Shown in pieces: positions 16,984-29,529 of a DNA stretch of 64,000 nt (position 1 is its first letter; each line of letters starts with the position of its first letter). The DNA comes from a virus, in IMG/VR virus record IMGVR_UViG_3300042868_010462, positions 64,001 to 128,000 of that record; one strand, 5' to 3'. The position numbers and the translations under genes were made by a program. The notes beneath the pieces were generated by a model. It was not told where the DNA came from. It saw only the letters and a list, made by a program, of their open reading frames with translations, and made no database searches.

Positions 16984-17137
16984 AGACCAGTTTTTTGTTT
17001 TTACGAGAATATTGTTTTGAACTTTTATGAACCTTGGTTATAGCAGAATAGCCATGGGGGTTCTTCTCTAAATATACCAATCGTGCACCATTTCCTATTG
17101 CATTGATTGTTATTTGGACTTTATTTTTCGTTTTCAT
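16973..17137 (-). CDS. Small basic protein (54 aa) with KVHKSSKQYSRK motif
   Basis: Manually translated; TAnnTTTG at 17158-17165; overlaps the next gene's start. Confidence 0.65.
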   Translation of the reverse strand: MKTKNKVQITINAIGNGARLVYLEKNPHGYSAITKVHKSSKQYSRKNKKLVYEI

Positions 17138-17176
17138 AATATTCTATGTTTGTCCAACAAATATAAAAACAATTTT

Positions 17177-17491
17177 CTATTCGTACAATTTTTTTCTAAC
17201 AAATTCTCCCAAATCAGCATCATTTGGATGATTCAATATTTCTTCCCTCTTTACACAATAAATCTGTTTTGATGGTAAATCATTTGCATCCATTTGATAA
17301 AAATCAACTAACTCAATAACTCTCATCAATTTGTGTGTGGTCTCACCAGTATCCCCCCATTCACTTATAACATGATATTTTTGTTCCCAACCTGAGGGGA
17401 GTATTTTAACTGAGAAAGGTTCAGCTTCACCATGCGGAAATATGGTGGTAATATTTGGTCTTTTTTTAACTACGAGATTCTTATTTTTCAT
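17177..17491 (-). CDS. Hypothetical protein
   Basis: 104-aa ORF. Confidence 0.6.
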   Translation of the reverse strand: MKNKNLVVKKRPNITTIFPHGEAEPFSVKILPSGWEQKYHVISEWGDTGETTHKLMRVIELVDFYQMDANDLPSKQIYCVKREEILNHPNDADLGEFVRKKLYE

Positions 17492-17904: not shown

Positions 17905-17998
17905 TATAATAAATATCCTACAAATCAGTATCTAAAAATCCAAACAAATAAAAAATTAACAGAACTAATAACATTATGTATAACATATAAATTTTTTG

Positions 17999-18075
17999 TA
18001 CCCCCTGAGAGAATCGAACTCTCAATCAAAACATCATCCTAAATGATGCGCGTCTACCTATTCCGCCAAGGGGGT
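17999..18075 (-). tRNA. tRNA-Leu(TAG), short variable region
   Basis: ACCCCCT/AGGGGGT acceptor; CATCA-TTTAGGA-TGATG anticodon arm; TTCGATT T-loop. Confidence 0.85.
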
Positions 18076-18082
18076 ATTTTTG

Positions 18083-18167
18083 TAGTCGGAGCGGGACTCG
18101 AACCCGCACGAACCTTTCGATTCAAAGGATTTTAAGTCCTTCGTGTCTGCCATTTCACCACCCAACC
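18083..18167 (-). tRNA. tRNA-Leu(TAA)
   Basis: AAGGA-CTTAAAA-TCCTT anticodon arm; long variable arm; GGTTCGAGTCC. Confidence 0.92.
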
Positions 18168-18171
18168 AACA

Positions 18172-18300
18172 TTACAATCCAAATCCCACCTTAATGAGAT
18201 AAACCAAACCTAGTACAATTATAGCCAACATCGTACCCGCAAACATCTGTGAAGAAAATTTAATTTGTTCTTCAGTTTTTCCTTGATTTTTGTTTTCCAT
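18172..18300 (-). CDS. Small membrane protein (42 aa)
   Basis: Manually translated MENKNQGK...GTMLAIIVLGLVYLIKVGFGL. Confidence 0.5.
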   Translation of the reverse strand: MENKNQGKTEEQIKFSSQMFAGTMLAIIVLGLVYLIKVGFGL

Positions 18301-18542
18301 CATAAAAATTTTTGAAAGTCCATAAAATGTTTATCAACCCACATTTTTCCTGTTACTTGTGTTGGATGTTCCGTTTTACTTTTATCGAATAATTCAGCCA
18401 TCGTTTTTCTTTCATTATCTAACTCATCCCAAAGATAAGATATCGCCAAGTTTAATTTCCGTTTTTCCTCAGTACCAACCTCGGACTCTCTGACAAGTTT
18501 TTCTAACTTTGCTATAACATTTTGAATGGGGGTGTTTTTCAT
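18300..18542 (-). CDS. Hypothetical protein (likely start MKNTP at 18542)
   Basis: ORF-track frame; its upstream extension overlaps another gene. Confidence 0.6.
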   Translation of the reverse strand: MKNTPIQNVIAKLEKLVRESEVGTEEKRKLNLAISYLWDELDNERKTMAELFDKSKTEHPTQVTGKMWVDKHFMDFQKFL

Positions 18543-18558
18543 CACAACTTTAATTTTT

Positions 18559-18735
18559 TTAATTGTTAATGTCAAGTTCCAACTGACTCTCACTAAATAT
18601 GTGCAACATTCCATTGTCGATTAATTCAGCAACAATTCTTGTGTCACCTGATGTTGTTTGAAATACCGCTACTACGATACCAGGGAACTTATACCCTTTT
18701 GGTTTGTAAACCTTGTCTCCTACTTTGAACTTCAT
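18559..18735 (-). CDS. Small SH3-like protein resembling DfrB/R67 dihydrofolate reductase
   Basis: Manually translated MKFKVGDKVYKPKGYKFPGIVVAVFQTTSGDTRIVAELIDNGMLHIFSESQLELDINN. Confidence 0.5.
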   Translation of the reverse strand: MKFKVGDKVYKPKGYKFPGIVVAVFQTTSGDTRIVAELIDNGMLHIFSESQLELDINN

Positions 18736-18741
18736 TTTTTT

Positions 18742-19146
18742 CTATTTTAAATAATTAACATGTATTGAATGAAAACCCTCACTCCTATTTATTTTCAATT
18801 CCATCCTTGAACCAGTAACATAATCAACCCAAACATTTTCACCAACTTTCACATATGGCTCCAAATCTTTATAAGATTTGTTTAACATCTTGATTGGTCT
18901 GTAAACACTCCAATTTGCACAATATTCTACCCCATTACTTTCAACAAAAATGAACCCATAACTTTCCAATTGTTTCTCGTCCATATACACAATATCATAA
19001 TAATAAGTAAAAATCTTTAACCCATCAATGAATTCTGTTTTGTGATTTGTACCTAGATTTTTTTCAATTTGTTGGGAAGATAAACCCAGTTGTGCAAATG
19101 TTAAAAATGGTAAAAATAATAATAGAAATAAAATCGTTTTTTTCAT
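18742..19146 (-). CDS. Exported hypothetical protein
   Basis: Signal peptide MKKTILFLLLFLPFLTFAQ. Confidence 0.65.
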   Translation of the reverse strand: MKKTILFLLLFLPFLTFAQLGLSSQQIEKNLGTNHKTEFIDGLKIFTYYYDIVYMDEKQLESYGFIFVESNGVEYCANWSVYRPIKMLNKSYKDLEPYVKVGENVWVDYVTGSRMELKINRSEGFHSIHVNYLK

Positions 19147-19160
19147 AATTTTTGTTTTAG

Positions 19161-19247
19161 TACACCCAGTAGGACTCGAACCTACAACGACCTTTCGGTA
19201 CCACTCCGCTTAGAAGGCGGGCATTCTTCCAATTGAATTATGGGTGC
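19161..19247 (-). tRNA. tRNA-Arg(TCT) with unusually long variable arm
   Basis: GCACCCA/TGGGTGT acceptor; CCGC-CTTCTAA-GCGG arm; extra GTGGTACCGAAAGGTC segment. Confidence 0.8.
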
Positions 19248-19350
19248 TAATCGATTGTCTTTCCAATCTGTCAGGTACTTCTATACCAATGAGACGAATT
19301 GTTTTTTTTTCAGTCGCATTACTTTCTGGAACTTCGTCAAAACCAAGTTG

Positions 19351-19431
19351 TAGTCAGTATAGGAATCGAACCCATATAATTTCATCTCAAGTCTAAGACT
19401 CGGAATTACTGTAACCACCCAGTGACTGACT
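19351..19431 (-). ncRNA. tRNA-like element 1 (AGTCAG acceptor family)
   Basis: AGTCAGT/ACTGACT-A acceptor and GGTTCGATTCC T-arm; no canonical D or anticodon arm. Confidence 0.6.
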
Positions 19432-19647
19432 TTCCCCCACCTTGAGATTACTGGTGAGTAGTTATTTCGGTTTTTATGCTATTCAAAAAACCTGTTGGGC
19501 ATCCCCACTGAAAAAAGTCACACATACGAAGGAGGGGGTGTGCTGCCGCCTTTAACCCTAAGAATCGGCATTCCGTTGTCCGATTTGAACGAGTTCATTG
19601 TTAAATGAGTCTTGAACCAAAGACTGCTGAGTATCTCTTACTCATTG
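19432..19647 (-). ncRNA. Candidate structured ncRNA (~215 nt)
   Basis: GC-enriched and non-coding, with several hairpins (GAGTA/TACTC, GTCTT/AAGAC, AATCGG/CCGATT, CACAC/GTGTG, GGTTTTT/AAAAACC, CACC/GGTG). Confidence 0.55.
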
Positions 19648-19754
19648 TAGTCAGGACAGGATTCGAACCTGTAAAATCTTTTATCTGGTTTAGGGTAGGT
19701 TCTATTCCTATCTCCTTCCAAAACATATAGCGTCTACCATTCCGCCACCTGACT
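19648..19754 (-). ncRNA. tRNA-like element 2 (AGTCAG acceptor family)
   Basis: AGTCAGG/CCTGACT-A acceptor, Leu-type D arm GCGGAATGGTAGACGC, ACAGGTTCGAATCCTGT T-arm, ~55-nt non-canonical insert. Confidence 0.7.
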
Positions 19755-19759
19755 AAATT

Positions 19760-20020
19760 TTAATTCAGTGCATCTATTTCCATACAATACAAACCGAACT
19801 CTTGTATTTCATCACCATATCTATACTTGTAAGTTCCCTCATAAATGTCGGGATAACTACTATCATAAGGAAAATAACCCAAGTATTCAACATCCTTATC
19901 TTCAAAGTAGGGTGGTAATCCCATATACTCATCCAAGAGTTGTTTGACCTTTTCAACTGTCGTTGCAGTTAGTACTGGGATTTTATCTTCCCTATCTACT
20001 ATAAGATATATTAGTGCCAT
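19760..20020 (-). CDS. Hypothetical protein
   Basis: 86-aa ORF between tRNA-like elements. Confidence 0.6.
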   Translation of the reverse strand: MALIYLIVDREDKIPVLTATTVEKVKQLLDEYMGLPPYFEDKDVEYLGYFPYDSSYPDIYEGTYKYRYGDEIQEFGLYCMEIDALN

Positions 20021-20391
20021 TGTTGTAAACTTTTATTTATATTAATTTTTGTCAATTTTTTTTTTCTTTTTTTTTTATTTTTTTCTTTTCCTTTTTTTTC
20101 TTTTATTTTTTTTTCTTTTGTTTTTACGACTTCCACCAAATCCATTTCTGGGTCAGATAATTCTTGATAACCAAACATTGAAAAGTCAGAAATATAAGAC
20201 CACCACTTTCCATCAAAAACATATCTTTCATGGTCTATTTTTGGTTTTTTATTGTCAATGCTTTTACCAAAATAAATTCCATCCCATCCATCTCTTTTCC
20301 CTTCTATTGGTGGATTACCCTTGATAATTTTTACTAATCTACCATCTCTACTCTTGTAAGTTTTACCTACTTCTAAAATTATATTTTCCAT
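20011..20391 (-). CDS. Hypothetical protein with Lys-rich tail (likely start MENIIL)
   Basis: LEVGKTYKSRDG N-terminus; the ORF-track extension runs through a tRNA-like element. Confidence 0.6.
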   Translation of the reverse strand: MENIILEVGKTYKSRDGRLVKIIKGNPPIEGKRDGWDGIYFGKSIDNKKPKIDHERYVFDGKWWSYISDFSMFGYQELSDPEMDLVEVVKTKEKKIKEKKGKEKNKKKRKKKLTKININKSLQQWH

Positions 20392-20423
20392 ATTTATAAT
20401 TTTTATTTTTTTAAATAAGTTAG

Positions 20424-20504
20424 TAGTCAGGACAGGATTCGAACTTGTGACGATAAACGCAGATGTGTACCTCATCTTGGCAGCTCCAATTCTGCCACCT
20501 GACT
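20424..20504 (-). ncRNA. tRNA-like element 3 (AGTCAG acceptor family)
   Basis: AGTCAGG/CCTGACT-A acceptor; GTTCGAAT T-loop; AGATG-AGGTACA-CATCT arm lacking U33. Confidence 0.7.
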
Positions 20505-20604
20505 TTGTTTGTTTAAACTTTTCGGTTTTCCTATTCAAAACCTTAACGTCAGGCAACAATCTAAGTGTCAGCCACTACTTGTGAATTATTAGGTGTCACA
20601 ACCA

Positions 20605-20835
20605 TTAGAAATATTTTCTTGTAAGATATTCATCAGTTCCTAAACTTGGTGCGTTGTTATTTTCATCTAAATGAAGAAACATAAATCCTTTGTAAGCGTT
20701 GGCTTCTAATAGAATCTTTTCAATCATTGTGATGATTCCAAGTTTTTCTTCCATCATAATGTTTGGATGGGCTAATTGTTCGTTAGCGAAGTTTTTAATC
20801 ATCTCAACTTGGATTGTTTTTTTCTCTTTAGCCAT
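20605..20835 (-). CDS. Hypothetical protein
   Basis: ORF with TAnnTTTG at 20858-20865. Confidence 0.65.
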   Translation of the reverse strand: MAKEKKTIQVEMIKNFANEQLAHPNIMMEEKLGIITMIEKILLEANAYKGFMFLHLDENNNAPSLGTDEYLTRKYF

Positions 20836-20920
20836 TGTGTTATTGTTTAAGTGTTCACAAATATAGAAATAGATTTTTAATTACACAACCTTTGATGAAT
20901 AATTTTGAGAAAAATATTTG

Positions 20921-20991
20921 AGCGGATAGTTGGTACTGCCCCAACTTATCTAGTTTGGAAGACTAGAACATTACTTTTATGCTATGCCCGC
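20921..20991 (-). tRNA. tRNA-Gly(TCC), non-canonical D and T loops
   Basis: GCGGGCA/TATCCGC-T acceptor; CTAGT-CTTCCAA-ACTAG; T-loop GGCAGTA. Confidence 0.8.
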
Positions 20992-20995
20992 TAAT

Positions 20996-21226
20996 TTACC
21001 TGAGATTCCAAATACCACCAGCAAAACACTTGAAGTCATTGTAACTTGTAACTCTTATAGGATTTTCTTCATATTTCCACCTATTACAAGTTATATAGAT
21101 TTCTCCTGTCCATTTATCCTTCTTGAGAAAGGTATAAATACCATTACGAGATTTGATATGGATTTTATCCCCATTTTTGAGGTTCTTAAACTGAGACAAT
21201 CTTATTTGTTCCATAAGTGATTCCAT
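20996..21226 (-). CDS. Hypothetical protein
   Basis: ORF between tRNAs. Confidence 0.6.
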   Translation of the reverse strand: MESLMEQIRLSQFKNLKNGDKIHIKSRNGIYTFLKKDKWTGEIYITCNRWKYEENPIRVTSYNDFKCFAGGIWNLR

Positions 21227-21243
21227 AGTATTTGAATAAAAAG

Positions 21244-21318
21244 TGGAGCCGGTATGAGGAATCGAACCCCATTATCTTGATTACAAGTCAAGCACATCAC
21301 CACTTATGCTTTACCGGC
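21244..21318 (-). tRNA. tRNA-Thr(TGT)
   Basis: GCCGGTA/TACCGGC-T-CCA; CTTGA-CTTGTAA-TCAAG. Confidence 0.92.
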
Positions 21319-21325
21319 ATTTATA

Positions 21326-21598
21326 TTATCTTCTTTTATAAACATAAGTTATTGTATCACCAATCTTATAAACATCATTTCTCTTGGTTATAACAAACTC
21401 GTCACAATCAGTTGAATAATGATATCTTTTCCCATATTCAATGGTGGATGGTGATTCTGTAACATAAAATGTATCTATTACACATCTTTTAACAATATCC
21501 CCATCTTCAATTTCATTATAGTTTGTTCTATTTAGAATTGAAGCTAATAAAACAAATGAAACAAAAAATAAAAACAAACAAGGAATTAAATATTTCAT
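21326..21598 (-). CDS. Hypothetical membrane-anchored protein
   Basis: N-terminal hydrophobic helix. Confidence 0.55.
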   Translation of the reverse strand: MKYLIPCLFLFFVSFVLLASILNRTNYNEIEDGDIVKRCVIDTFYVTESPSTIEYGKRYHYSTDCDEFVITKRNDVYKIGDTITYVYKRR

Positions 21599-21600
21599 CT

Positions 21601-21849
21601 TTAAACTTTTAACAAATAAATTAATAATGAACCCAAAGTATAACCAATACTGGAAGCCAAGGCCATCTTGATTCTTTCATTCCAATTCTTTGATTCAACC
21701 ATATAACCAACAAATGGTAATCCCAAAAATGGCCCGATACAAGCCCAAAAAATCATCATAAAATCTCTATCAGCAACCGTTGCAATATACATAGTTGCGG
21801 CCAACTCAATAACAAATGATGCGATACCAATTATAATATATTTTTTCAT
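21601..21849 (-). CDS. Small three-TM membrane protein
   Basis: Hydrophobic segments. Confidence 0.6.
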   Translation of the reverse strand: MKKYIIIGIASFVIELAATMYIATVADRDFMMIFWACIGPFLGLPFVGYMVESKNWNERIKMALASSIGYTLGSLLIYLLKV

Positions 21850-22442
21850 AAATGTTTAATTACCCAATCCGCAAACTTCTTTTGTCCTGATAAACTTACA
21901 TGAACCCCATCACCAGCATCTTTGAATGTTACAGATGTATCCTTTGGAATTATAAGACAATTTTTCAAACCTGTCTTTGGGTCAACCATCAATTTTTGAA
22001 ATTCAACATACCTTGCTCTACATCTATCAGTGGTCTCAGTACCATATACAGTTCTAACCATAACTTTGATGGGGTCATATCCAACAATAACAATCGGTTT
22101 AATCCCCCTCCTATTACAAGAATCAACCATCATCTGTATATTATTAACGGCACCCTGTAAGTTCACATAAGAAAAAGCATCATTACAACCCCCATAAATA
22201 AACACACTGGTAAACATTGAATCTCTCTTCAAATGGTCGTTAAGTGTTAATCTCATCCAATCCGTTCTCTTTCCACCACTTGATTTATTTAAACTCTGAT
22301 AACCGAATTCCTTGGCTACCATATCTTGCCAACCACCAGTATAACAAGTCAAACTATCACCGATGAATAATACCCTCAAAGGTGGGGTTGAAAAGGAAGT
22401 TAATAAAATAACACATAACAATAATAAACTAATTTTCTTCAT
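21846..22442 (-). CDS. Exported SGNH/GDSL hydrolase
   Basis: FIGDSLT, GGCND and DGVH motifs; signal peptide. Confidence 0.85.
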   Translation of the reverse strand: MKKISLLLLCVILLTSFSTPPLRVLFIGDSLTCYTGGWQDMVAKEFGYQSLNKSSGGKRTDWMRLTLNDHLKRDSMFTSVFIYGGCNDAFSYVNLQGAVNNIQMMVDSCNRRGIKPIVIVGYDPIKVMVRTVYGTETTDRCRARYVEFQKLMVDPKTGLKNCLIIPKDTSVTFKDAGDGVHVSLSGQKKFADWVIKHL

Positions 22443-22455
22443 AAAACAATTTTTT

Positions 22456-22533
22456 TGGTGGAGACAGTGAGAATCAAACTCACCTCACAGATATTGCAAA
22501 TATCCATCGCCAAGTCTTGGTACATGTGCCCCC
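22456..22533 (-). tRNA. tRNA-Ala(TGC), atypical D arm
   Basis: GGGGGCA/TGTCTCC-A-CCA with G3:U70; GGATA-TTTGCAA-TATCT. Confidence 0.82.
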
Positions 22534-22541
22534 ATTTTTAT

Positions 22542-23063
22542 TTATAACCCAATTTCCTCCAAAGGTAAAACCTCAAAGAAATATTTACAACCAACATCTG
22601 TTATATATTCAAAAACATCCTTATAACAATCTTTATTGAAAAAATTACTTAAGACATAATAGTACTCAACTTGGATACCGATTGGACTAAACAATTTTTT
22701 ATATTGTCTTTTTTTGAAATTACAAGTTTGTAATTTCTCATCAACAGAACCGGCACCATTTTGGTATTTCTTTTCAATTATGTAGATGGTATTCCCCACT
22801 AATATTGCAGCATCAGGTAAAAGTTTTTTACTGATAATCGTATTGTGGTCAATATTATATCTACTTAACAATTTTTTGTACAGACCATATTTCTCAAAAT
22901 ATTCACCGACAATTATACCATTTTTTACAATTTGGTCTTGATTATCCATCACATAATCACTTTGTTCCACTAACAATTTTTTTAGGTGTGTTGTAGCTTC
23001 AAAATGTAATCCGTTAACATTTGTGTTTGCACCCCCACCACTTTTGTTTGGCGTTCTATTCAT
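22542..23063 (-). CDS. PD-(D/E)XK nuclease-like protein
   Basis: LLPD...IIEKKYQ...GSVDEKLQT. Confidence 0.7.
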   Translation of the reverse strand: MNRTPNKSGGGANTNVNGLHFEATTHLKKLLVEQSDYVMDNQDQIVKNGIIVGEYFEKYGLYKKLLSRYNIDHNTIISKKLLPDAAILVGNTIYIIEKKYQNGAGSVDEKLQTCNFKKRQYKKLFSPIGIQVEYYYVLSNFFNKDCYKDVFEYITDVGCKYFFEVLPLEEIGL

Positions 23064-23079
23064 AGTTTTTCTTTTTTTG

Positions 23080-23164
23080 TGGTGGGAATGGAGGGATTCG
23101 AACCCCCTCAGCTAATACAAATGATTTACAGTCATCCCCGACTCTCCAGCTTCGGCGCACTCCC
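23080..23164 (-). tRNA. tRNA-Tyr(GTA)
   Basis: GATGA-CTGTAAA-TCATT; GGTTCGAATCC; encoded CCA. Confidence 0.9.
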
Positions 23165-23175
23165 ATTATAAATTG

Positions 23176-23250
23176 ATGCAGGAACGGGAGTCGAACCCGT
23201 ATGGTACGGCTTATGAGACCGAGCTGGAACCACTTCCAGTCCATCCTGCA
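23176..23250 (-). tRNA. tRNA-Met(CAT), atypical D arm
   Basis: TGCAGGA/TCCTGCA acceptor; CGGT-CTCATAA-GCCG. Confidence 0.8.
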
Positions 23251-23259
23251 TTGTGTTTG

Positions 23260-23331
23260 ACGCAAAGAAAGGAATCGAACCTTTTACCTTTGGGTTATGA
23301 GCCCAATGTGCAACCACTACACTTCTTTGCA
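23260..23331 (-). tRNA. tRNA-fMet(CAT)
   Basis: Three G:C pairs in the anticodon stem (TTGGG-CTCATAA-CCCAA); weak 1:72 pair. Confidence 0.85.
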
Positions 23332-23339
23332 TATATTTG

Positions 23340-23411
23340 TAGCCCGTAGGGGAGTCGAACCCCTCTTGCAAGAATGAAAATCTTGAGTCCTAGCCGATAG
23401 ACGAACGGGCC
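23340..23411 (-). tRNA. tRNA-Glu(TTC)
   Basis: GGCCCGT/ACGGGCT; CAAGA-TTTTCAT-TCTTG. Confidence 0.92.
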
Positions 23412-23422
23412 ATATTTGTTTG

Positions 23423-23496
23423 CGAGCTATAGGGGATTCGAACCCCTGGTCTTCAGCGTGACAAGCTGAAATGTTAAACCCCTACACCAATAGCTC
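23423..23496 (-). tRNA. tRNA-Asp(GTC)
   Basis: GAGCTAT/ATAGCTC-G; TCAGC-TTGTCAC-GCTGA. Confidence 0.92.
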
Positions 23497-23518: not shown

Positions 23519-23542
23519 ATGTCAATGAACTTTACAAAGTTA
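23519..23542 (-). promoter_or_regulatory. TAnnTTTG promoter plus boxA-like GTTCATTGACAT ahead of tRNA-Asp
   Basis: TAACTTTG at 23535-23542; GTTCATTGACAT at 23519-23530, identical to 29354-29365. Confidence 0.65.
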
Positions 23543-23549
23543 AACAATC

Positions 23550-24029
23550 TTATCCAATTTTCCAAGCACCATAGATAACTTTTTTTCTCTGTAGTGCATC
23601 TTCTGTGTTTCCAATTACAACTCCATCTTTGATTGTGAAAGCATGACCCTTGATTGTAACAATGTAAGTTCCTTTTGAATACTTTTCCAAGAACTTAGCT
23701 GTTGTCATATTTCTCAAAACATTTCTTCCTTTCACCTCAACCCAATATGCCATTTGAATATCTTCTCTAATTGGTGTAACACCTTTACGATTGAACTTTA
23801 TCTGTTTTGACGCAAGTGTATTCATAGTTAAACCAAAGAGTGCAGTCCCTTGTCTATTTTTTCTACCAAAAACCTCTGCCACTTTTTTGTGAGCATAGTC
23901 GTAAGTAACTCCAAACGCTGAAGCAAAGGCTCTGACGACACAATCGTCTTTCTCACTTTGAGCTAACTTCGATTCTGCAATCCCTTTGATGGCGACTGAT
24001 GATGATATGTATGGTGTTTTCGTTTTCAT
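23550..24029 (-). CDS. Hypothetical phage protein (DCVVRA...H motif)
   Basis: 159-aa ORF; TAnnTTTG at 24034-24041. Confidence 0.7.
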   Translation of the reverse strand: MKTKTPYISSSVAIKGIAESKLAQSEKDDCVVRAFASAFGVTYDYAHKKVAEVFGRKNRQGTALFGLTMNTLASKQIKFNRKGVTPIREDIQMAYWVEVKGRNVLRNMTTAKFLEKYSKGTYIVTIKGHAFTIKDGVVIGNTEDALQRKKVIYGAWKIG

Positions 24030-24073
24030 ATTACAAAGTTACAAAACCATTTTTAATTTCCAAACTTTGTGAT

Positions 24074-24109
24074 AAAAAAAAATCCATCTTTTTTTACGAA
24101 GATGGATTT
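24074..24109 (-). terminator. Attenuator-type intrinsic terminator after leader A
   Basis: AAATCCATCTT-loop-AAGATGGATTT-T-run; the 5' arm is complementary to GGAGATGG in the leader. Confidence 0.8.
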
Positions 24110-24136
24110 GACATTATTAACACTCAAAACTTAAGT

Positions 24137-24208
24137 TCATACCATCTCCATCCGAGGATTTCTACCCTCAGCTCCAGTCGTTAAGTCCATATAGAGATTG
24201 CGTTTCAT
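24137..24208 (-). CDS. Leader peptide A, MKRNLYMDLTTGAEGRNPRMEMV
   Basis: 23-aa ORF 27 nt upstream of the terminator; composition matches the downstream tRNA array. Confidence 0.75.
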   Translation of the reverse strand: MKRNLYMDLTTGAEGRNPRMEMV

Positions 24209-24267
24209 TGAATTTCTTACTATTTTTTTATTAAATATAATGATATAACGGAAAAGTGTCAAGTATG

Positions 24268-24579
24268 TTACAAAAAAGATGAAATAATTTGTGCTACTTT
24301 ATATCCTGTGAAGGCTCCCAATGCCGCAGAACCTGGTAAAACAAAGAACTTACCGAATAAACTTTCATATTTTGACCTATTAACGATGTATGAAATTAGG
24401 ATATAATAAAGAAAGAAGTTAATCAGTACAGCAATATCGATTTCCTTGGCCATAAAGACAACAATCGAGTTTCCAAAGAACCCCCAACTGAAGTTTATTA
24501 ATGTCTCCCTGATTAATTCCCAAACTGATGTATTGGCATCAGCAACCTTAATTTCCCTTGTAAATAAATTATTTTTCAT
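24268..24579 (-). CDS. Membrane protein
   Basis: Three hydrophobic segments. Confidence 0.65.
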   Translation of the reverse strand: MKNNLFTREIKVADANTSVWELIRETLINFSWGFFGNSIVVFMAKEIDIAVLINFFLYYILISYIVNRSKYESLFGKFFVLPGSAALGAFTGYKVAQIISSFL

Positions 24580-25105: not shown

Positions 25106-25747
25106 TTATTCCTTCGAATCTGTATCGTAAAACATTAAGTCAGAGTCTTCGGTTGCCCATTTATTATGTCCTTCACAATTATAATAATCTAAATTAACTA
25201 GATAATCAGGTTTCTCAGGAAAATCTTTTGTGACAAAAGAAGGTTCATTCCATCTTATTCTATTGTTGGGTTGTAAGGCAATTTGTCCATTATCTAATAA
25301 GATGATGTGATGACACTTGTGTTCCATAGGGTCTTCTGACAATGTTAAATCAGTATTCATATCACTTGAACCCCAGTTAATTGTGCCAAAATAATTTCCA
25401 TCATACCATTTCTTATCTTTCATAAAAACTGAAACCCGCATCCCATATACAAAACTAAGTTGAATGAGGGAAAAGTTATATGAAAAACAATTCCATAATT
25501 GCAGAAAATGAAAAGACAAATCAGGATTTGGTGTCTCAGGTTTTGTCAATAGTGCATGAGATGGTAATTTGTCTCTCATTACACCATTGTTCAATAAAAC
25601 CTGAAACAAAACCGCCTGGTTTGGCATACACCGAATCGAAGTAACAATTCCTTCTGTAAACTCACCAAATCCTTTTTGGTGCTGATACATATATTCATTT
25701 CGAACATAAACTTTAAGTGGGAAAAAATTACTTTCGATATAAGCCAT
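25106..25747 (-). CDS. Hypothetical phage protein
   Basis: 213-aa ORF (VYVRNEY, LQLWNCFS, HKCHH, QPNNRIRW). Confidence 0.7.
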   Translation of the reverse strand: MAYIESNFFPLKVYVRNEYMYQHQKGFGEFTEGIVTSIRCMPNQAVLFQVLLNNGVMRDKLPSHALLTKPETPNPDLSFHFLQLWNCFSYNFSLIQLSFVYGMRVSVFMKDKKWYDGNYFGTINWGSSDMNTDLTLSEDPMEHKCHHIILLDNGQIALQPNNRIRWNEPSFVTKDFPEKPDYLVNLDYYNCEGHNKWATEDSDLMFYDTDSKE

Positions 25748-26404: not shown

Positions 26405-27139
26405 TTAAAACTTTTTATATTTTTTATCCCAATTTTCAATCCTTTTTAAAAGTTCTTCCATTGTTATTGACGAATTATCCTTTTTTATTGAATTATCTGA
26501 GAATAATAATAGATTACAATTCGCAGGATGGGATATAATCTTTGGGTTAATCTTATTTCGAAAACCATCCATCACAGAATACATATGGTCTTTACTTACC
26601 CCTTTCAAATTATTCCGTTTGTTTGTTGGTGAATACCATCCATATTGTTCAACTAAAGATAAATCAAATTCATCTTTAAAATCTTGGATGTCAAACTTAA
26701 AAAAACAAGATGGTCTATAATACTCGTAATATGTTAATTTACAATCATTACATATTATTTTCAACTTTTCAGTTACCTCATTAATTGAACAAATCTTACA
26801 AATCTTTTTAGTTTTAATCTTTTCCTTTCTGGGCTTGTTTTTTAAGGTCTCTGAAATCTTTTTTTTAGTTTCTTCAGTCAGTTTTCTATTTCTATTATTA
26901 TACTGTATAGCACAAGAAGATGAACAAAAGGTATTAGGTTTACTAAAATATTTTTCAAATTCCTTTTTACAATTTTTACAAACTTGATTTTCCTTGTATA
27001 TAACTTTTAAATTCAATCTACCCATTTTACAATTGATAGATTTGTAAGTCGTTCCCATAATTTCAGCAATATCACCAGGTCTATAACCCTTCTCGACAAG
27101 TGAAACTAATTGTTTTATATTTTCATCATTCCATTTCAT
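26405..27139 (-). CDS. Putative HNH-type homing endonuclease
   Basis: HTH-like N-terminus, CxxC..FCSSSC, LTEETKKKISE (NUMOD3-like), SKDH...HPANC...N..K. Confidence 0.7.
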   Translation of the reverse strand: MKWNDENIKQLVSLVEKGYRPGDIAEIMGTTYKSINCKMGRLNLKVIYKENQVCKNCKKEFEKYFSKPNTFCSSSCAIQYNNRNRKLTEETKKKISETLKNKPRKEKIKTKKICKICSINEVTEKLKIICNDCKLTYYEYYRPSCFFKFDIQDFKDEFDLSLVEQYGWYSPTNKRNNLKGVSKDHMYSVMDGFRNKINPKIISHPANCNLLLFSDNSIKKDNSSITMEELLKRIENWDKKYKKF

Positions 27140-28799: not shown

Positions 28800-29034
28800 T
28801 TCTACAAAGTTACCATTTTTTTTTAATTTCCAAATATCTTTGTAAGTTTTTTTTAAAGTGGTCAAAATCCACCACTTTAAGTTATTACTACACAATCCAT
28901 AAAATGGTAAAAACCAATTAATGTAAAACTTGAACAATAAATTATTTTAAAAAAAATTTTGAATTTTACTTGGATGTATGGTATTTGTTTTGTTTCTTTG
29001 TTAAACATTATTTCACTACTAAAAATTTAAAATT

Positions 29035-29353: not shown

Positions 29354-29365
29354 ATGTCAATGAAC
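29354..29365 (-). promoter_or_regulatory. boxA-like element GTTCATTGACAT
   Basis: Directly after the attenuator T-run and before tRNA-Gln; exact copy at 23519-23530. Confidence 0.6.
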
Positions 29366-29421: not shown

Positions 29422-29529
29422 TTATAATTCTATAGAATTTCCCCAACCATTACAAACACTCGGCTTTGACCAACAATTGCTAAATTGTGGCTGAACCGAT
29501 ATGTTAATATGTTTGAAGAAATTTTTCAT
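29422..29529 (-). CDS. Leader peptide B, MKNFFKHINISVQPQFSNCWSKPSVCNGWGNSIEL
   Basis: 35-aa ORF 24 nt upstream of the terminator; composition matches the downstream tRNA array. Confidence 0.78.
   Translation of the reverse strand: MKNFFKHINISVQPQFSNCWSKPSVCNGWGNSIEL

Follow-up and report, generated by a model that had tools for sequence, protein, structure and literature searches.

The reasons for which phages carry tRNA genes, and the use to which these are put, are an open question, and we know of nothing on the regulation of tRNA arrays beyond their promoters. The question takes a concrete form in a giant phage of Bacteroidota, where a 23-codon open reading frame (ORF) and an intrinsic terminator stand ahead of a tRNA gene block: does this cassette control the tRNA genes behind it, and what would it sense? 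The DNA analyzed (the window) is a stretch of 64,000 nt of virus DNA, positions 64,001-128,000 of IMG/VR record IMGVR_UViG_3300042868_010462, whose parent record is 147.9 kb long with an estimated completeness of about half. The phage has a G+C content of ~30%, and its minus strand carries at least 21 tRNA genes, identified by ARAGORN, Rfam, and our own reading of the sequence. Searches of deposited phages revealed no close relatives, the only matches being to tRNAs, and Rfam detected no known RNA family above threshold in the array region or in the cassette.

We find that the cassette is probably a ribosome-mediated leader-peptide transcription attenuator, which would read the decoding speed on codons served by the tRNAs of the block that it precedes (block A). 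The initial annotation had proposed an attenuator here, and that interpretation is supported by the conservation of the cassette, by covariation in its antiterminator, and by a link between leader composition and block tRNAs that extends across phages.

A leader ORF and a terminator at the head of a tRNA block

The cassette and the elements behind it lie on the minus strand in the following order.

24232..24263, minus strand: promoter-like box cTTG-N20-TATATTTA, also readable as TTGACA-N17-TATATT
24239-24232, minus strand: TATATTTA motif, upstream of leader ORF A
24137..24208, minus strand: leader ORF A, 23 codons plus TGA, with its ATG at 24208 and its stop at 24139-24137
24161..24196, minus strand: proposed sensor core LYMDLTTGAEGR, codons 5-16, with a block-A tRNA for 12 of 12 residues
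24191..24197, minus strand: segment 1, UCUCUAU, possible anti-antiterminator partner of AUGGAGA
24152..24171, minus strand: internal 8-bp hairpin CUGAGGGU-AGAA-AUCCUCGG, from folding
24142..24149, minus strand: segment 2, GGAGAUGG, 5' strand of the antiterminator helix, within codons 20-23
24098..24105, minus strand: segment 3, CCAUCUUC, common to the antiterminator and the 5' arm of the terminator
24074..24109, minus strand: intrinsic terminator, with an 11-bp stem (24109-24080), an 8-nt loop, and a U-run to 24074
24034..24064, minus strand: host-type (Bacteroidetes) promoter TTTG-N19-TAACTTTG, immediately following the terminator
23550..24029, minus strand: 159-aa gene matching phrog_3754 (function unknown), between the attenuator and the tRNAs
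23542-23535, minus strand: second -7 box, TAACTTTG, preceding tRNA-Asp
23530-23519, minus strand: boxA-like 12-mer GTTCATTGACAT, at the head of the tRNA transcript
17998..23496, minus strand: tRNA block A, interspersed with small genes, its first tRNA being tRNA-Asp (23496)

The spacer between the stop codon of the ORF and the terminator stem is 27 nt long and A/U-rich, and GGAGAUGG is complementary to CCAUCUUC over 8 bp with one G:U. Both features had been read from the sequence in the initial annotation, together with a TATTTA-type motif upstream, which is present as TATATTTA at 24239-24232, and the 159-aa gene (24029-23550) between the attenuator and the first tRNA; all four were borne out. 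A 103-aa gene ends at 24268, just upstream of the cassette.

The box at 24232..24263 is the region's best sigma-70-type match (11 of 12 positions). Although this match is real, the promoter type of the host phylum is a different one, and we therefore read the element as a putative cTTG-N19/20-TATATTTA promoter-like box, the spacing of which fits that of Bacteroidetes -33/-7 promoters. The cTTG-N20-TATATTTA box is kept in all W-clade variants (the W clade being the group of relatives to which the window belongs), and the TATATTTA box is also found upstream of leader-B-type ORFs, which were not chosen by that motif. Leader B of the window (29529-22, as written) is a second small ORF, which heads the upstream array.

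The tRNA genes of block A are arranged in the order Asp, Glu, Met, Met, Tyr, Ala, Thr, Gly, two atypical tRNAs, Arg(UCU), Leu(UAA), and Leu(UAG). Two of them were missed by ARAGORN: tRNA-Gly(UCC) at 20991-20921, which is an Rfam tRNA match, and tRNA-Ala(UGC) at 22533-22456, where Rfam gives a weak tmRNA match only and where our own reading of the sequence finds a G3:U70 pair and an encoded CCA.

Conservation of the cassette and covariation of its RNA helices

Cassettes related to that of the window were collected at two levels. ORF-based patterns retrieved the W-clade variants, and the W-clade sample, assembled by pattern and protein searches, comprises 14 different cassette versions from about 20 viral or metagenome contigs. 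For the wider family, occurrences of the box with ATGAAA behind it were collected, and those with a short ORF and a terminator were retained; the full sample amounts to 32 distinct cassettes, W clade included, from several dozen phage and metagenome contigs. Since members of the family are related by descent, counts across them do not represent independent events. Individual relatives are denoted below by L numbers.

A search for disrupted ORFs was negative, in that the start, the frame, and the position of the stop are intact in 32 of 32 distinct cassette versions. Six synonymous and about nine nonsynonymous changes have accumulated in the ORF within the W clade, with zero frameshifts and zero new stops, and the stop codon has changed between TGA and TAA, at the same position, in two different lineages. 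Family-wide, the ORF is 22 to 25 codons long, and the terminator lies 21 to 31 nt past its stop. The cassette is 93 to 95% identical to that of L005, compared with about 70 to 80% in the flanks; between clades, the 159-aa protein is 72% identical while the leader ORF differs at 1 of 72 nt. Codons 11-13 are the sole variable patch among W-clade relatives: in L030, Thr and Ala are swapped, which still yields Thr/Ala/Gly, and in L046 the patch reads Ile(ATA)-Ala-Thr.

The position of the cassette is equally constant. In the W clade it always stands ahead of a block starting with tRNA-Asp, and in the family all cassettes sit between two groups of tRNA genes, always at the head of a tRNA block. Pattern matches with a tRNA within 1.2 kb consisted of 18 cassettes with an intact ORF and 7 unrelated longer genes, and degenerate or broken copies of the cassette were not seen among them. 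Phages with an only ~50% identical homologue of the 159-aa protein have no cassette before that gene, but one of them, L047, possesses a second terminator inside its tRNA region, preceded by the same box and a 22-codon ORF.

Might the terminator simply mark the ordinary end of the operon upstream, the ORF before it having arisen by chance? The 103-aa gene ends near enough for this, but the cassette sequence is kept where the upstream gene has been replaced (L012, L016, and L019) as well as where the 159-aa gene downstream is absent (L009, L016, and L019), in which case it abuts tRNA-Asp. The cassette is more conserved than either neighbor, and the composition of its ORF is the most extreme among 667 small ORFs of the genome (see below), so that this explanation appears to us extremely improbable.

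The third codon positions of the ORF are as conserved as the rest of it, and far more so than those of neighboring genes, which shows a constraint on the RNA itself and not on the peptide alone. The pairing proposed as antiterminator joins the last codons of the ORF to the 5' terminator arm; the initial annotation had noticed it in the window, and it is backed by covariation in the family. The cores of the terminator arm differ by subgroup (CCAUCU, CCCUCU, CCCUCUU, CCAUUU, or GCCCGAA), and when the ORF was paired with the 5' arm, the strongest duplex mapped to the final ~12 nt of the ORF for 19 of 22 representatives. Own ORF-arm pairs have a mean energy of -10.06 kcal/mol versus -6.99 kcal/mol for cross-type pairs (permutation p = 5e-5 over items; rank 4 of 720 when each arm type is represented once). 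In a MAFFT alignment of 21 family sequences used for covariation analysis, 94% of the cells of the antiterminator helix are paired, versus 45 to 69% when the partner is slid, and its covariation score was reached by no shuffle. The terminator has 92.6% of its cells paired and four covarying pairs across the family. Single-sequence shuffle tests of the antiterminator duplex were modest (p = 0.003 to 0.5); support for the antiterminator comes from the position of the duplex and from covariation.

In the antiterminator helix, pair 17:67 is U:A in 13 sequences and G:C in 6, a compensatory change whose U-to-G step changes a Met codon to Arg; base pairing was therefore kept rather than the peptide. 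This observation bears on the possibility that the locus is a stand-alone small-protein gene, the 23-aa peptide being its product and the terminator ending the gene and insulating the tRNA block. The retention of the ORF everywhere would be expected of such a gene, as would the ordered motif that the family peptides share, namely an MKNL-type start, a central Gly-Gly or Ala-Glu, and a final Val. A selected peptide, however, would not lead to third positions as conserved as the others, to a Met-to-Arg change that tracks the terminator arm, or to nonsynonymous changes as common as synonymous ones within close groups, nor would its function explain the match of codons to isoacceptors described in the next section. 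We regard a small-protein gene as quite improbable. The shared motif also qualifies the expectation, stated in the initial annotation, that the leaders would conserve composition rather than order: composition is conserved, but the order of the peptide is partly conserved as well.

Folding predictions are compatible with two alternative structures. The minimum free energy fold of the full leader (-32.0 kcal/mol) contains the UCUCUAU:AUGGAGA pairing, the internal hairpin, and the terminator, and the antiterminator form lies only 2.7 kcal/mol above this terminator fold at equilibrium, so that an attenuation model rests on kinetics. Nascent RNA without the 3' arm is predicted to fold into the antiterminator (-27.6 kcal/mol), and masking of a ribosome at the stop codon yields the terminator fold. 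In L046, an AAT-to-AAC change converts a G:U to a G:C in the internal hairpin.

Segment 1 may act as an anti-antiterminator. Its pairing with AUGGAGA belongs to the minimum free energy fold and is invariant in the W clade, which leaves it without covariation, and a clear counterpart of segment 1 was not found in other family members. An inner helix, CUCUA:UGGAG, was considered and rejected, as it is broken in L025 and L030. We also considered descent of the cassette from a tRNA, suggested by a T-arm-like hairpin and a 7-bp acceptor-like pairing; ARAGORN and the tRNA model gave no support to it.

These structures, along with a leader fold z-score of -2.4 and the very high conservation at the nucleotide level, could also be taken to mean that the cassette is a noncoding RNA (a small RNA or a translation-independent RNA switch) of which the ORF is a by-product. 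The best Rfam score, however, owes itself to the terminator and, at 24 bits, falls short of the cut-off of 54. A by-product would hardly keep its start, frame, and stop through many substitutions and through in-frame lengths of 22 to 25 codons, or undergo two stop-to-stop changes at one position. A noncoding RNA is in our judgment very improbable, even more so than a small-protein gene.

Leader codons and the tRNAs of the block

If the leader ORF is read as part of an attenuator, its codons should bear some relation to the genes under control. Seventeen of the 22 noninitiator residues of leader ORF A have a tRNA in block A, a count that had been given in the initial annotation and that holds, although it depends on tRNA-Gly and tRNA-Ala, the two genes missed by ARAGORN. 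Against the phage's own amino acid frequencies, the match has a binomial P of 0.005, and among the 667 ATG-initiated ORFs of 18 to 45 codons in the genome it is reached by leader A only. A block-A tRNA exists for each of the 12 residues of the core, which the initial annotation had described as listing every amino acid of the array. The G-rich sequence of the core could partly reflect RNA pairing needs.

At the level of codons the match is weaker than the initial annotation had implied. The exact cognate codons that it had listed (GAC, TTA, GGA, AGA, and ATG) are present, but standard pairing accounts for 11 codons of leader A, another 4 depend on four-way U34 wobble, which four codons of the core require, and CGC and CGG are unreadable by tRNA-Arg(UCU). 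Five or six positions are without a block-A tRNA: Lys, His/Arg-CGC, two Asn, Pro, and Arg-CGG. Tandem runs of a single codon are absent from leader A, where the amino acids are scattered, occurring one to three times each, and where the longest repeat is Thr-Thr.

The relation between leader and block extends beyond the window. Leader-terminator-block units were extracted automatically from 20 regions, and the same design was seen in every phage examined, with a third such unit in L163/L164. In the window, no other of the 24,310 possible 8/9 splits of the tRNAs separates the residues of leader A from those of leader B as well as the real two-array division does. Residues specific to a block are enriched in its own leader, with an odds ratio >1 in 11 of 11 two-leader phages (window, p = 7e-6). 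Nearly all amino acids of a block are represented in its leader, as in examples with 16 of 16, 14 of 14, 13 of 13, 12 of 12, and 11 of 11; for leader A of the window the count is 8 of 8. Leaders of family A fit their own blocks better than those of other members (p = 1e-4, with the W clade counted once), while the cross-phage permutation of family B leaders against blocks was not significant (p = 0.24).

Moves of tRNAs from one block to another are mirrored by differences between the leaders. The W clade has Tyr, Thr, Arg(UCU), and Leu(UAG) in block A, and its leader A carries Tyr, two Thr, an AGA, and a CTC codon, all of which leader B lacks; array B of relatives carries tRNA-Asn and tRNA-Val. 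In L163/L164, the block carries Phe, Thr, Asn, and Arg, precisely the residues in which its leader is rich. An exception is L046, with Ile (ATA) in the core yet no recognized tRNA-Ile in the block.

The choice among synonymous codons provides the sharpest test, because peptide function cannot explain a match at this level. The counts that follow include related sequences, and the CTN association spans at least three separate lineages. CTN Leu codons occur in family A only in lineages in which tRNA-Leu(UAG) is seen in block A, that is, in the W clade (the window, L012, and L117), L163/L164, L165/L166, and L167/L103. Seven family-A leaders whose block is without tRNA-Leu(UAG) never use CTN (TTR, 26 of 26). 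Leader B of six phages uses CTN for 13 of 13 Leu codons, and Leu(UAG) is seen in block B in five of these six; the genome-wide CTN share of Leu codons is 25%. Isoleucine behaves in a similar manner, leader A having 12 ATA and 3 ATY codons and leader B 6 ATA and 24 ATY codons (p = 2e-4), a split that matches the presence of tRNA-Ile(UAU)/CAU in block A and of tRNA-Ile(GAU) in block B.

These data also bear on what an attenuator at this locus would sense. It could be coupled to translation in a general way, reporting translation capacity or the coupling of ribosome and polymerase (for instance, upon host shut-off or ribosome shortage) rather than the block-A tRNAs. The geometry of the switch requires nothing but a lagging ribosome, the first codons (Lys, His/Arg, and Asn) and several later ones are unserved by block A, and tandem regulatory codons are absent, as would be expected under this explanation. 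It leaves unexplained, however, why leaders fit their own block better and why synonymous Leu and Ile codons track the isoacceptor of the block. A general sensor is unlikely in our estimation, although it has a better chance than any of the other alternatives weighed here.

The proposed switch, its known counterparts, and its genomic setting

An attenuator responsive to the tRNAs of block A would work as follows. The promoter-like box would start a short transcript, and the 23-codon ORF would be translated while the transcript is being synthesized. The last four codons, which contain GGAGAUGG, would be able to pair with the 5' arm of the terminator, located 27 nt further on. A ribosome moving as fast as the polymerase would reach the stop codon and cover segment 2, upon which the terminator would form and transcription would end. 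A ribosome lagging on the upstream codons would leave segment 2 free to pair with the terminator arm, allowing read-through into the 159-aa gene and then into the boxA-headed tRNA block. Since these upstream codons (Leu, Tyr, Met, Asp, Thr, Gly, Ala, Glu, and Arg) would mostly be read by block-A tRNAs, the circuit would raise tRNA transcription when the tRNAs are short; its net effect would be negative feedback, with slow decoding of those codons giving more of those tRNAs. The anatomy of the cassette, its conservation, the covariation of the antiterminator, and the match of leader codons to block tRNAs across phages are observed; we infer the translation of the ORF, the direction of the switch, the size of its response, and the relevance of read-through in the window.

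The model with the best support is kinetic and ribosome-mediated, and the switch would work like the classical leader-peptide attenuators and the pheST leader. The leaders trpL, hisL, and thrL and the multivalent ilv leaders are enterobacterial leader-peptide attenuators of amino acid biosynthetic operons. Leader A resembles them in its short ORF, its intrinsic terminator, and an antiterminator overlapping the 5' terminator arm on one side and the 3' end of the ORF on the other, and slow decoding of regulatory codons would likewise result in read-through. In contrast to these systems, phage tRNA genes rather than enzymes lie behind the switch, about nine amino acids appear once or twice each in place of a run of a single codon, and the host phylum is Bacteroidota, in which, to our knowledge, leader-peptide attenuators have been little studied. 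Leader A differs from the classical attenuators further in that a promoter follows the terminator in the window and in that the 1:2 anti-antiterminator pairing is unsupported outside the W clade.

In E. coli pheST, an aminoacyl-tRNA synthetase is controlled through a run of Phe codons in the pheM leader. There, too, a component of the translation machinery is controlled by the speed at which cognate leader codons are translated, whereas the product under the control of leader A would be the tRNAs themselves, and many codons would be monitored. T-box riboswitches sense tRNA status and choose between terminator and antiterminator upstream of translation-related genes, but the T-box binds tRNA directly and has no ORF, unlike the cassette with its conserved ORF. 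A T-box covariance model gave no match in a 221-nt stretch even at E up to 10, and the cassette is not a T-box. In mycobacteria, short leaderless ORFs with Cys codons are reported to act as attenuators (bioRxiv 10.1101/834739). In that system, which also lies outside the classical enterobacterial cases, the codon content of a small ORF reportedly couples amino acid or tRNA supply to downstream expression as well, the differences being a single amino acid, biosynthetic targets, and another phylum and mechanism.

In our literature search, neither attenuators for tRNA genes nor the box sequence turned up in any paper. We lean, with slightly less confidence than for the attenuator itself, toward the view that giant phages of Bacteroidota keep their tRNAs in blocks, each headed by a switch whose ORF is a checklist of the codons served (leader A of the window being one such ORF), and that the arrangement is a codon-resolved homeostat that discriminates down to the isoacceptor and the first control of this kind for tRNA genes. 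If so, the phage would monitor the host tRNA pool through decoding speed on the codons that its array serves, and would top up on demand a pool that may be depleted by host shut-off or by tRNA-cleaving defenses. Leader-peptide attenuation would then extend to tRNA genes, to multicodon checklists, and to Bacteroidota. As the cassettes are short, modular, and naturally present in many forms, the sensors could be reused as codon-specific translation reporters.

The consequences of read-through would depend on the promoters behind the terminator. Promoters of the Bacteroidetes type TTTG-N18-21-TAnnTTTG number 21 in the genome versus 5.1 expected. The one at 24064-24034 falls into an extended promoter family together with sites at 28834 and 15662, and W-clade relatives possessing the 159-aa gene retain it; a near-consensus host-type promoter after the terminator is a feature of the window and of every W-clade relative. 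With this promoter behind the terminator and a second one before tRNA-Asp, block A is here independent of read-through, and in the window the switch can only add to block-A transcription. That the cassette is nevertheless strongly conserved argues for its continued function despite two downstream promoters.

The arrangement in many relatives is simpler, GTTCTTTGACATATTGG following the terminator directly and leading on to the first tRNA without an intervening host-type promoter. In L047, L087, L136, L168, and L169, the boxA-like box and the tRNA come directly after the terminator in a gap free of host-type promoters, so that the tRNA block is reachable there only via read-through of the terminator. 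Other relatives and the whole W clade have a host-type promoter inserted ahead of the boxA-like box.

The box itself is also found in rRNA operons of Bacteroidota. The 17-mer of the relatives has matches in more than 120 genomes, almost all of them Bacteroidota, which indicates a Bacteroidota host, and in 3 of 3 rrn loci checked (Pedobacter, Flavihumibacter, and Niabella) it is located past the spacer tRNAs and immediately ahead of the 23S gene. This site in the 16S-23S spacer is the classical position of the spacer boxA of rrn operons. The window's 12-mer at 23530-23519 differs from the box of the relatives by one base and, judging by its position and identity, is probably a local form of an rrn-type boxA, the NusB/NusE site. 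Its 17-mer relative shares the location of that site in the spacer before 23S; in the phage, the 12-mer is a separate element downstream of the attenuator and not part of the switch.

Leader B and the boxA-like signal

Leader B, a candidate attenuator that heads the upstream tRNA block, combines a 35-codon ORF with a terminator, which is directly followed by a boxA-like 12-mer and then by tRNA-Gln; no promoter was found from the terminator to tRNA-Gln. In the relatives L008 and L014, the first 23 codons of the leader differ by six synonymous versus one non-synonymous change. Judged from sequence comparison, divergence of leader B among relatives is of the coding type. In distant phages, too, homologues of this leader stand at the head of the first tRNA block.

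Leader elements and promoter copies
29422-29529, minus strand: leader B ORF
29399-29370, minus strand: leader B terminator
29354-29365 and 23519-23530, minus strand: identical copies of the 12-mer GTTCATTGACAT
~17050-17360 of the joined, reversed stretch of L163/L164, reverse strand: third leader-terminator unit
28834, 24064 and 15662, minus strand: extended promoter family, TTTGGRAATTAAAAA...GGT...TAACTTTG

The 12-mer precedes the first tRNA in both window arrays. In all three Bacteroidota rrn operons checked, its 17-mer form, taken from relatives, is part of the 16S-23S spacer and directly precedes 23S. This match points to a putative rrn-type antitermination signal and to Bacteroidota as the probable phage host. 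Two of the three promoter copies lie within the tRNA region.

The third leader-terminator unit belongs to a complete 299-kb phage (L163/L164), where it precedes tRNAs for Lys, Val, Ile, Ser, His, Tyr, Pro, Trp, and Cys. Its leader is devoid of Phe, Arg, and Gln, and the tRNAs for these three amino acids are located in another block of the same phage.

Protein genes among the tRNA genes

Protein genes
23550-24029, minus strand: 159-aa protein, phrog_3754, a PHROG with no assigned function
25106-25747, minus strand: 213-aa protein, matching a PHROG labelled ferredoxin (1e-67)
26405-27139, minus strand: 244-aa protein, with weak NUMOD3 and GcrA-like matches

Homologues of the 159-aa protein, some only ~50% identical, are found within the tRNA arrays of several relatives, and Cys30, His47, and His129 are invariant in an alignment of five close homologues. 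The protein may be a tRNA-related enzyme. The gene for the 244-aa protein, which is flanked by tRNA-Trp and tRNA-Cys, may represent an insert of the homing-endonuclease type.

Atypical tRNA genes and a conserved intergenic stretch

Two atypical tRNA-like genes have, as drawn, the same acceptor stem.

Atypical tRNA-like genes
19648-19754, minus strand: tRNA-like gene
20423-20504, minus strand: tRNA-like gene

In one of the pair, 29 nt are inserted into the anticodon loop, and the assignment of this gene to the Gln or Leu type is uncertain; for the second, the call is Tyr(GUA) at a weak 30 bits. By our own reading, a gene for tRNA-Ala(UGC) lies on the minus strand at 22456-22533; the tRNA contains a G3:U70 pair, and its CCA is encoded. 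ARAGORN made no call for it there, and Rfam returned only a weak tmRNA match. A conserved stretch of ~170 nt without a tRNA call lies between tRNA genes in two relatives (L036:2630-2800 and L039:2680-2880) and may be another structured RNA.
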